A stretch of DNA of 64,000 nucleotides, taken from the NCBI RefSeq assembly GCF_048403405.1, contig NZ_CP183129.1. One strand, given 5' to 3'. Numbering within the stretch: the first letter of the stretch is position 1; every line of letters starts with the position of its first letter. The notes below the pieces were generated by a model. It was not told where the DNA came from. It did not search any database and saw only the letters and a list, made by a program, of their open reading frames with translations. The position numbers and the translations under genes were made by a program. This document shows positions 8,811 to 38,711 of this stretch, one piece after another. The stretch is from Escherichia coli (GTDB lineage Bacteria > Pseudomonadota > Gammaproteobacteria > Enterobacterales > Enterobacteriaceae).

Positions 8811-8883
8811 TAATTGTGCACAGAAAACCCCCAGCTAGGCTGGGGGTTCCGGAAAGCTTTCAGCTTTAAGCCAGTTATTAAAA

Positions 8884-8952
8884 CCCCTTTTGATTTGTTA
8901 AAACACCTTGCGGTCTGGCAACTGCAAGTGTCAAACAAGAAATCAAAAGGGG
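8884..8952 (+). promoter_or_regulatory. RBS-sequestering stem-loop of IS200 tnpA
   Basis: CCCCTTTTGATTT (8884-8896) is the exact reverse complement of AAATCAAAAGGGG (8940-8952); the right arm covers the AAGGGGG Shine-Dalgarno 7 nt before ATG 8959. Confidence 0.7.
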
Positions 8953-20528: not shown

Positions 20529-20966
<438 letters not shown>

Positions 20967-20990
20967 GTCATTAACCTTTTTAATTGGCGA

Positions 20991-21167
20991 TTAACTCAAA
21001 CCGAGTTGCTTCAGGATTGCTTTACGCAATGGTTCTTTTATCTCATCACTGGGGTGACGCGGCATGACACTGCGTCGCCCTTGAAACCTGAGTTTCAAAT
21101 GGTTGCTGCCATTCGCCACATCGACGCCCTGAGATTCGAGCCAACGTCTGAACTCGCTTTGTTTCAC
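20991..21167 (-). CDS. hicA: HicA mRNA interferase toxin
   Basis: 58-codon frame from GTG 21165-21167 to TAA 20991-20993: (M)KQSEFRRWLESQGVDVANGSNHLKLRFQGRRSVMPRHPSDEIKEPLRKAILKQLGLS; below ORF-track cutoff, found by hand. Confidence 0.8.
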   Translation of the reverse strand: MKQSEFRRWLESQGVDVANGSNHLKLRFQGRRSVMPRHPSDEIKEPLRKAILKQLGLS

Positions 21168-21388
21168 ATCACCTCCCTGCCGCTGAGTATATCAACAAAG
21201 TAAACATTAGTGTTTACCTCCGTGTGTAATTTGCTCGAAAATAGCACTAAATCGCCGCAACGGCAGAATGCAATGCAAAATCAGGAAGGAAGATTCCAGA
21301 ATTTCTTTGCGCTAATTTGCAAAACTGAATAATAACCTCAAGAAACGATCGGCATCATAGCGGCAAAAGGTCAGAAAAAGGTGGTGGG

Positions 21389-21619: not shown

Positions 21620-21628
21620 GTCATTTGT

Positions 21629-21662
21629 TGCCGGATGCGGCATGACGCCTTACCCGGCAGGC
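21629..21662. repeat. REP (repetitive extragenic palindrome) element
   Basis: TGCCGGATGCGGCATGACGCCTTACCCGGCAGG closely matches REP consensus GCCGGATGCGGCGTGAACGCCTTATCCGGCCTAC; lies between convergent yncJ and ydcP. Confidence 0.6.
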
Positions 21663-36304: not shown

Positions 36305-36611
36305 ACCAAAAACCTCTTTGCGTCACATTTTTACAACAATTATGGCAGAGAAGAATAATGCCATTGGAATGAAGAGAGTAACGAATGATTAAACTGGCTA
36401 AACCGAATGACGAAAAATTCTGGAAAACAGCACGCAATTTCGTGAAGTGATTATTTTCGTCCCTAAGGAAACCTCATAGGATGCCTGCGGGTGCCTGAGA
36501 CTTTCTGTTTTCAGGCTAACCGGGAATCAGAAAGACGAAGGCCCCGACCGATATTTCTATCAACTGTACTGCACCCATTTTGTTGGACGATGAAATGGAA
36601 TAGCCCCTAAT

Positions 36612-37133
36612 ATGTCAAAGCCAAAATACCCTTTTGAAAAGCGCCTTGAAGTCGTGAATCACTACTTCACAACTGATGATGGTTACAGGATCATCTCGGC
36701 ACGTTTTGGTGTCCCCCGAACCCAGGTCAGGACATGGGTTGCCCTCTATGAAAAACATGGAGAAAAAGGTTTAATTCCCAAACCTAAAGGCGTTAGTGCT
36801 GATCCAGAGTTGCGTATTAAGGTCGTGAAAGCTGTGATCGAGCAGCACATGTCCCTTAATCAGGCTGCTGCTCACTTTATGCTTGCTGGTAGTGGTTCTG
36901 TAGCCAGGTGGCTGAAGGTCTATGAAGAGCGCGGAGAAGCTGGTTTACGCGCGCTCAAGATTGGCACCAAAAGAAACATTGCAATATCAGTTGATCCAGA
37001 AAAAGCGGCATCAGCATTGGAGCTGTCAAAAGACCGACGCATTGAGGATCTTGAAAGGCAAGTTCGATTTCTTGAAACGCGGCTTATGTATCTAAAAAAG
37101 CTGAAAGCCTTAGCTCATCCCACGAAAAAGTAA
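36612..37133 (+). CDS. insJ: IS150 OrfA (InsJ), HTH DNA-binding protein
   Basis: 173 aa MSKPKYPFEKRLEVVNHYFTTDDGYRIISARFGVPRTQVRTWV..; slippery heptamer A_AAA_AAG at 37094-37100 near its 3' end. Confidence 0.9.
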   Translation: MSKPKYPFEKRLEVVNHYFTTDDGYRIISARFGVPRTQVRTWVALYEKHGEKGLIPKPKGVSADPELRIKVVKAVIEQHMSLNQAAAHFMLAGSGSVARWLKVYEERGEAGLRALKIGTKRNIAISVDPEKAASALELSKDRRIEDLERQVRFLETRLMYLKKLKALAHPTKK

Positions 37134-38476: not shown

Positions 38477-38647
38477 ATAACCTCCATGGTTTATCGAATC
38501 TTATGTTCGATTTGAACGTTATACGCTGGTTTATTTTGATACCGTTGATGAGATCAAAGATCGGGCGAATTGATTAAAGATAAGCCAGATGGACGTATGG
38601 ATAAGGATTATGGTTTTATTTGTCATACAAATAAATATAATAGGCGC

Positions 38648-38711
38648 TTCCGATGTAGACCCGTATTCTTCGCCTGTACCACGGGTCGGTTTTAGTACAG
38701 GCGTTTTCTTT
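38648..38711 (+). ncRNA. rydC: RydC small regulatory RNA (Hfq-dependent)
   Basis: CTTCCGATGTAGACCCGTATTCTTCGCCTGTACCACGGGTCGGTTTTAGTACAGGCGTTTTCTT recognised from memory as RydC; TATAAT at 38634-38639 upstream; ends in GCCTGTAC..GTACAGGC hairpin plus U-run. Confidence 0.8.

Follow-up and report, generated by a model that had tools for sequence, protein, structure and literature searches.

The minus-strand open reading frame at 20991-21167 of the E. coli DNA analysed here, a stretch of 64,000 nucleotides referred to as the window, is almost certainly the chromosomal E. coli hicA gene, which encodes the toxin half of HicA-HicB, a type II toxin-antitoxin pair. Its identity, intactness and synteny were established in this study, as was the conservation of its catalytic residue, of its regulatory sequence and, across genera, of its GTG start. 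The gene is the orthologue of K-12 hicA, a system that is already known, and no departure from that system was found.

Results

Direct reading of the minus strand showed that the GTG at 21167-21165 opens a frame of 58 sense codons followed by TAA, and the product is MKQSEFRRWLESQGVDVANGSNHLKLRFQGRRSVMPRHPSDEIKEPLRKAILKQLGLS. Since 41 ORFs of at least 30 aa lie within the surrounding 3.5 kb, an ORF of this size is within chance, and the case for hicA as a gene is therefore one of homology. The product matched the Pfam profile HicA_toxin (PF07927) with 34.5 bits (gathering cutoff, 27; E = 2.2e-8), residues 5-57 of HicA corresponding to positions 3-58 of the 58 in the profile, and it matched PHROG 353 ('toxin') with an E-value of 2e-11. 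A PDB search gave chain A of 6HPB ('mRNA interferase toxin HicA') as the sole match (E = 8.8e-34, residues 1-58). Assignment to the dsRBD fold (alpha-beta-beta-beta-alpha) comes by sequence alone, through identity at 56 of 58 residues across the whole crystallised chain 6HPB_A. Hundreds of homologues were found for this minus-strand frame. In the identical genome TUM14771, the RefSeq hicA product WP_000813797.1 maps exactly onto 20991..21167, with ydcR on one side of hicA/hicB and yncJ and rlhA on the other; the order rlhA-yncJ-hicA-hicB-ydcR is the K-12 arrangement (hicA b4532, hicB b1438). Several E. coli chromosomes carry the 1-kb hicA region with 100% identity, and 5,416 of the 5,426 complete E. 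coli genomes have a match to it. Neither HicA nor HicB was matched by an NCBIfam model, and PADLOC gave no match for HicA and just marginal HTH-type matches for HicB. The missing matches are gaps in the libraries and not contrary evidence; the PADLOC outcome gives no support for listing hicA as a catalogued defence system.

An earlier note on this DNA had proposed a HicA frame of 58 codons with a GTG start upstream of hicB. The coordinates, Pfam, PDB 6HPB_A and the RefSeq CDS all agree with that proposal, and hicA does directly precede hicB on the strand they share, with the refinement that this is the minus strand. Alignment to K-12 HicA covers 58 of 58 columns with zero gaps, and the frame disruption that the note had named as the refuting outcome is absent. 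The note had also stated that hicA is missing from the ORF track, and the sole reason for this is that 58 codons fall below the default 60-aa cutoff. Its more general remark, that small toxin genes fall below the 60-aa display, holds for hicA, the only gene for which it could be verified. At this default, the only ORF listed over hicA is one of 65 aa in antisense orientation, which overlaps it by 162 nt (Table 1).

Table 1. Positions of hicA, hicB and neighbouring sequence features in the window
Feature	Position	Strand	Remarks
hicA CDS, 58 codons + TAA; type II toxin, mRNA interferase	20991..21167	-	ORF, RefSeq CDS, Pfam, PDB
hicA start GTG	21165..21167	-	First start after in-frame TGA; same in K-12; Met1 conserved
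SD region GGGAGGTGAT	21168..21177	-	Abuts GTG directly; GGAGG core ends 4 nt before start
-10 element TATACT of proximal HicB-repressed promoter P2, putative position	21186..21191	-	5/6 match to TATAAT
Perfect inverted repeat GTAAACA-N4-TGTTTAC, putative hicO overlapping P2 -35 region	21200..21217		Identical in K-12
Candidate CRP-S (CRP-Sxy) site of distal promoter P1, low confidence	21303..21324		Best 22-mer in leader
hicA-hicB spacer, 45 nt	20946..20990	-	Identical to K-12; holds alternative in-frame ATG 20966
hicB CDS, 138 aa; antitoxin + repressor	20529..20945	-	RefSeq WP_001270286.1
Spurious 65-aa ORF, TTG start	21006..21203	+	Antisense to hicA; no annotation in identical genome

An in-frame TGA at 21194-21192 stands 9 codons upstream of the GTG. 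No start codon occurs between the two, which makes this GTG the earliest possible start of hicA, and the K-12 annotation of hicA begins at the same GTG. We aligned 34 HicA sequences: besides those of the window and K-12, the set comprises 32 relatives, among them proteins of Escherichia, Citrobacter, Salmonella, Klebsiella, Serratia, Xenorhabdus, Photorhabdus, Pantoea, Yersinia and Variovorax. In this alignment the N-terminal residues MKQSEF are conserved without N-terminal extension, and Met1, Glu5, Arg8, Leu10, Gly14 and Val15 are its invariant N-terminal residues. Within the SD region, the 9 nt GGAGGTGAT match the reverse complement of the 16S rRNA 3' end (TAAGGAGGTGATC). K-12 has GGAGGCGAT where the window has GGAGGTGAT, and contiguous anti-SD complementarity is 5 in K-12 and 9 in the window; this SD base is the sole leader difference from K-12 within ~200 nt upstream of the GTG.

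The start is GTG in six of the seven loci compared across genera. The five loci from other genera start with GTG in Citrobacter freundii, Salmonella enterica, Serratia marcescens and a Variovorax-like contig and with ATG in the Klebsiella-type locus, and GGAGG ends 4-5 nt before the start in all five; these starts are gene-caller calls, though in agreement with the conserved N-terminus. On the compared loci, the GTG start is a trait common to this HicA clade and no peculiarity of the window. In the window and in K-12, the sequence GATGTGA also places an out-of-frame ATG-TGA start-stop over the GTG, its ATG 2 nt upstream. None of the Citrobacter, Salmonella, Serratia and Variovorax-like loci, all of which start with GTG, has this overlap, and because it is unconserved in other genera it is regarded as incidental.

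TATACT, found in a relaxed -10 search, ends 19 nt before the hicA GTG, and from its position the P2 transcript would be expected to start at about 21180-21178, on the edge of the SD (21177-21172). The perfect inverted repeat upstream of it is likely to be hicO, because of its position and the published statement that P2 contains hicO (PMC11594946). GTAAGCA-N4-TGCTTAC (or TGTTTAC) occurs at the same place in the Citrobacter, Salmonella and Klebsiella-type loci. Neither TATACT nor the operator-like repeat differs from K-12, and their positions agree with the literature (PMC6957337, PMC7167474). The -35 region of P2 is poor, and a simple promoter/terminator scan (sigma-70) of the locus called neither P2 nor P1 and zero terminators.

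The candidate CRP-S site of P1 is weak, matching 12 of 20 specified positions of a CRP-S consensus; it carries TGCGC on the plus strand, which resembles the conserved half-site TGCGA (motif: PMC6728893). A 16-mer search of the leader for CRP-S found none at 7 of 10 core matches save a spurious one over the SD, and hicA is unmentioned in Cameron and Redfield 2006 and in Sondberg 2019. Between the SD and a point ~200 nt upstream of the GTG the window equals K-12, with three differing positions further upstream, so any CRP-S site within that identical stretch is retained. The fold of the leader RNA had no extra stability relative to shuffled sequence (z = -0.41), so that, apart from the operator hairpin, nothing points to a structured leader, and around the hicA locus Rfam yielded only sub-threshold matches. 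Inside hicA, at 21081-21098 (codons 24-29), the sequence TTGAAAC-TCAG-GTTTCAA forms a second perfect inverted repeat of the 7-N4-7 kind. It has the geometry of the operator repeat with a different sequence, and the H29 codon of K-12 (CAT) shortens it by one pair; this repeat is probably a coincidence.

HicB is identical to K-12 HicB at 138 of 138 residues. It scored above the Pfam cutoffs for PF15919 (HicB_lk_antitox) in its N-terminal part and PF01381 (HTH_3) in its C-terminal part, and its PDB matches were 6HPB_B/6HPC (138 aa) and 6U0I (145-aa form). The longest ORF of hicB begins at ATG 20966, which is preceded by AAGG, and encodes 145 aa (MRETVEIMRYPV...), whereas RefSeq and K-12 annotate ATG 20945 (138 aa). 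The Pfam HicB domain starts at residue 10 of the 145-aa form, and in Citrobacter freundii, too, an in-frame ATG precedes the hicB start by seven codons (MRAFTEIM). The start of hicB is ambiguous, the 138-aa and 145-aa forms having both been crystallised. No terminator-like hairpin was found in the hicA-hicB spacer of the window.

The window and K-12 share 98% column identity over ~900 nt of DNA, without indels in hicA or hicB. Eight nucleotide differences in the 177 nt of hicA affect six codons, four synonymously and two non-synonymously, and seven differences in the 417 nt of hicB affect seven codons, all synonymously. Such a synonymous bias is what coding sequence shows when purifying selection acts on it. 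At the protein level, HicA is identical to K-12 HicA at 56 of 58 residues without gaps; the two substitutions are H29Q and C40S, and His23 is kept. His23 is invariant in all 34 aligned HicA proteins, and the window allele retains all 16 invariant columns. Position 29 is freely variable in the alignment (Q, H, R, K, N, G), Gln29 being found in the Citrobacter, Serratia, Pseudidiomarina and Variovorax relatives. All 32 relatives have Ser or Gly at position 40, and within the alignment Cys40 occurs in K-12 alone. This pattern places the window allele nearer to the family consensus than the K-12 allele.

When 5,426 complete E. coli genomes were searched with the hicA ORF at a word size of 11, hicA DNA was found in 4,253 (78%) and none in 1,173 (~22%). 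Among those with hicA DNA, 811 (~15% of the 5,426) fall in a class with a 155-nt span in the 80-90% identity band, and at most 3,442 (~63%) carry a full-length hicA, an upper bound because the 155-nt class was the one lesion class separated from it. A 70-mer K-12 probe and a 40-nt junction probe for the 22-nt deletion class gave 3,269 and 199 genomes; since megablast requires an exact word of 28 nt, these counts are too low, and they are superseded by the word-11 search. All eight sampled rows of the 80-90% band are annotated only as 'mRNA interferase', and the one fetched genome of the 155-nt class is flagged as frameshifted, with a 22-nt deletion. In K-12-type alleles a direct repeat, TGCG, flanks this deletion, and at the first copy of the repeat the window allele has AGTG. 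HicB of the one frameshift genome examined has the same protein accession as that of the window. In the one aligned example of the class lacking hicA, a deletion of ~445 bp runs from the operator repeat into hicB, taking out hicA, its operator and the 5' part of hicB and leaving a 3' hicB fragment. The two lesion loci lie at L003:892-1046 and L004:730-966 in fetched coordinates, equivalent to ~20768-21212 in the window. Six sampled genomes with partial coverage of the locus have 56% coverage each and hicA unannotated. The hicA allele of the window occurs at >=99% DNA identity in 182 of the 5,426 genomes. The window thus has an intact copy of a locus that E. coli as a species can dispense with.

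Other RNA features were also recorded in the window. An Rfam 'sok antitoxin' match at 36489-36641 (+), with 72.4 bits and above gathering, lies between trg and a copy of IS150; the entries for this sok-like region are 36489-36641 (+) and 36612-37133 (+). No Hok-type ORF was found near the sok-like RNA and no hok is annotated in identical strains, and the locus looks like a hok/sok remnant disrupted by IS150. The small RNAs STnc490 (8826-8949 (+), 146 bits) and RydC (38647-38710 (+), 92.5 bits) are both above Rfam gathering. A sub-threshold Rfam match to naRNA4 (24.9 bits, E = 0.067) at 21620-21659 (-) is located just downstream of yncJ; judged by its sequence (GCCGGATGCGGC...CCGGCAGGC), it resembles a palindromic element of the REP type.

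Discussion

According to Jorgensen 2009 as cited in PMC11594946, K-12 HicA has RNase activity, arrests growth and is neutralised by HicB; when expressed ectopically it is bacteriostatic, inhibits translation and induces cleavage of the ompA, dksA and rpoD mRNAs and tmRNA. His23 is the sole known catalytic residue of HicA, and in an A2B2 complex it is covered by the folded antitoxin HicB (PMC8138530, PMC11594946). In the accounts given in PMC11594946 and PMC10865869, P2 holds the operator hicO, HicB alone represses and excess HicA derepresses. The K-12 literature also describes an increase of hicAB transcription upon amino-acid starvation. By analogy with the K-12 allele, the RNase activity, toxicity, neutralisation and two-promoter logic would apply to the window. 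HicA would then be a 58-residue RNase of the dsRBD fold that halts growth and whose cutting of mRNAs and tmRNA does not depend on translation, and HicB would bind HicA, hide His23 and repress the proximal promoter through its C-terminal HTH. The Q29/S40 allele would be expected, from the alignment, to be as active as K-12 HicA.

The output of the toxin appears to be kept low at three levels. At the level of translation, we infer that the GTG start, with the SD core only 4 nt upstream, is probably sub-optimal and weakly translated. At the second level, the P2 transcript of K-12 begins at the ribosome-binding site and gives HicB without HicA, as summarised from Turnbull and Gerdes 2017 in PMC6957337 and PMC7167474; the window sequence is identical there and a P2 transcript would presumably do the same. 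At the third level, only the mRNA of the distal promoter P1 would be translatable into both proteins; published accounts describe a CRP-S site in P1, its activation by CRP-Sxy and translation of its mRNA into both HicA and HicB (PMC11594946 and PMC8138530).

ORFs of the size of hicA are common by chance, and the antisense ORF is both longer than hicA and listed by default, so one may ask whether hicA is a chance open frame and the 65-aa ORF the true feature. The probability of this is negligible, because the Pfam, PDB and RefSeq support and the hundreds of homologues all favour the minus-strand frame, whereas the plus-strand ORF starts with TTG and is unannotated in the identical genome; the antisense ORF is a shadow ORF outside the hicAB system. 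That translation of hicA begins elsewhere is also extremely unlikely. GTG is weaker than ATG as a start, GATGTGA puts an ATG 2 nt before the hicA GTG and a TGA directly after it, so that the start-stop might capture initiation, and hicA contains an internal in-frame GTG (codon 17) and ATG (codon 35). However, residues 1-16 are among the most conserved of the family and are included in the crystallised 58-residue protein, and this conserved N-terminus makes initiation at codon 17 or 35 implausible. The sequence has a strong SD directly before the hicA GTG and none before codons 17 or 35, and the ATG-TGA overlap is missing in the four other-genus loci that keep GTG.

It is very unlikely, too, that hicA is present but dead in the window, with H29Q and C40S inactivating the toxin in a decaying locus as in many E. 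coli. The loss or breakage of hicA in ~37% of complete E. coli genomes indicates that loss is tolerated, and hicA diverges from K-12 more than hicB does (8/177 nt vs 7/417 nt). Both substituted positions nevertheless also vary in relatives that carry an intact annotation, the frame is open, His23 and all 16 invariant columns are kept, and the nucleotide changes are mostly synonymous. The preferred reading is therefore an intact hicA translated from its GTG. As a speculation that we consider rather unlikely, hicA is being lost by two lesions and the unchanged HicB of the one frameshift genome examined might reflect selection for an orphan HicB, acting as a repressor or as a guard against plasmid or phage HicA, and the window allele, without the TGCG repeat and with a stronger SD, could be a stabler and more translated toxin variant.

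The biological weight of these findings is small, since the genetic, biochemical and structural characterisation of E. coli hicA/hicB goes back to 2009 and the window copy is intact and near-reference. The ~63% retention of full-length hicA provides context for the dispensability of this toxin-antitoxin system. In practical terms, the 60-aa cutoff conceals a genuine annotated toxin gene and displays a spurious antisense ORF instead; scans near antitoxin-like genes should therefore lower the cutoff or add a homology step.

Comparison with known systems

The HicA proteins of Citrobacter, Salmonella, Klebsiella and Serratia and those of phages and plasmids are 57-58 aa long and 77-88% identical, with hicA before hicB. 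The modules in other Enterobacterales share the close GGAGG SD, mostly a GTG start, and an upstream repeat of the GTAARCA-N4-TGYTTAC type; the combination of GTG, GGAGG and operator-like repeat is common to the Citrobacter, Salmonella, Serratia and Variovorax-like loci. Their contexts differ, however, hicA of other genera being adjacent to a gene for the small subunit of terminase, an ORF6N-domain gene or KwaA (Kiwa system), whereas E. coli hicA stands among housekeeping genes, unlike these phage- or defence-flanked close relatives. Mobile and defence-associated contexts have been proposed for HicA domains, and the neighbours in other genera are consistent with this (PMC10865869).

A GC-rich hairpin (e.g. 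CCAGCCCTCCGGGGCTGG) is present in the hicA-hicB spacer of the Salmonella, Klebsiella-type, Serratia and Variovorax-like loci, in contrast to the E. coli and Citrobacter chromosomal loci, which are without it. In the coordinates of the fetched loci these hairpins lie at L006:578-627, L007:575-623, L008:575-631 and L009:578-671. One study (PMC11878559) reportedly described a noncanonical intrinsic terminator within a plasmid hicAB operon, and the spacer hairpins of the relatives may be linked to it.

The closest known system is K-12 hicA (b4532, formerly yncN; NP_415954.2; PDB 6HPB chain A), with which the window has locus, synteny, length, GTG start, spacer and HicB in common. Systems with an RHH-type HicB, such as Yersinia pestis HicA3B3 and those found in Burkholderia pseudomallei and in Streptococcus pneumoniae, share the HicA fold family, the catalytic His and an antitoxin placed over the active site (PMC11594946, PMC8138530). 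HicB of the window carries an HTH (PF01381) and not an RHH, and it is of the A2B2 heterotetramer type described for E. coli.
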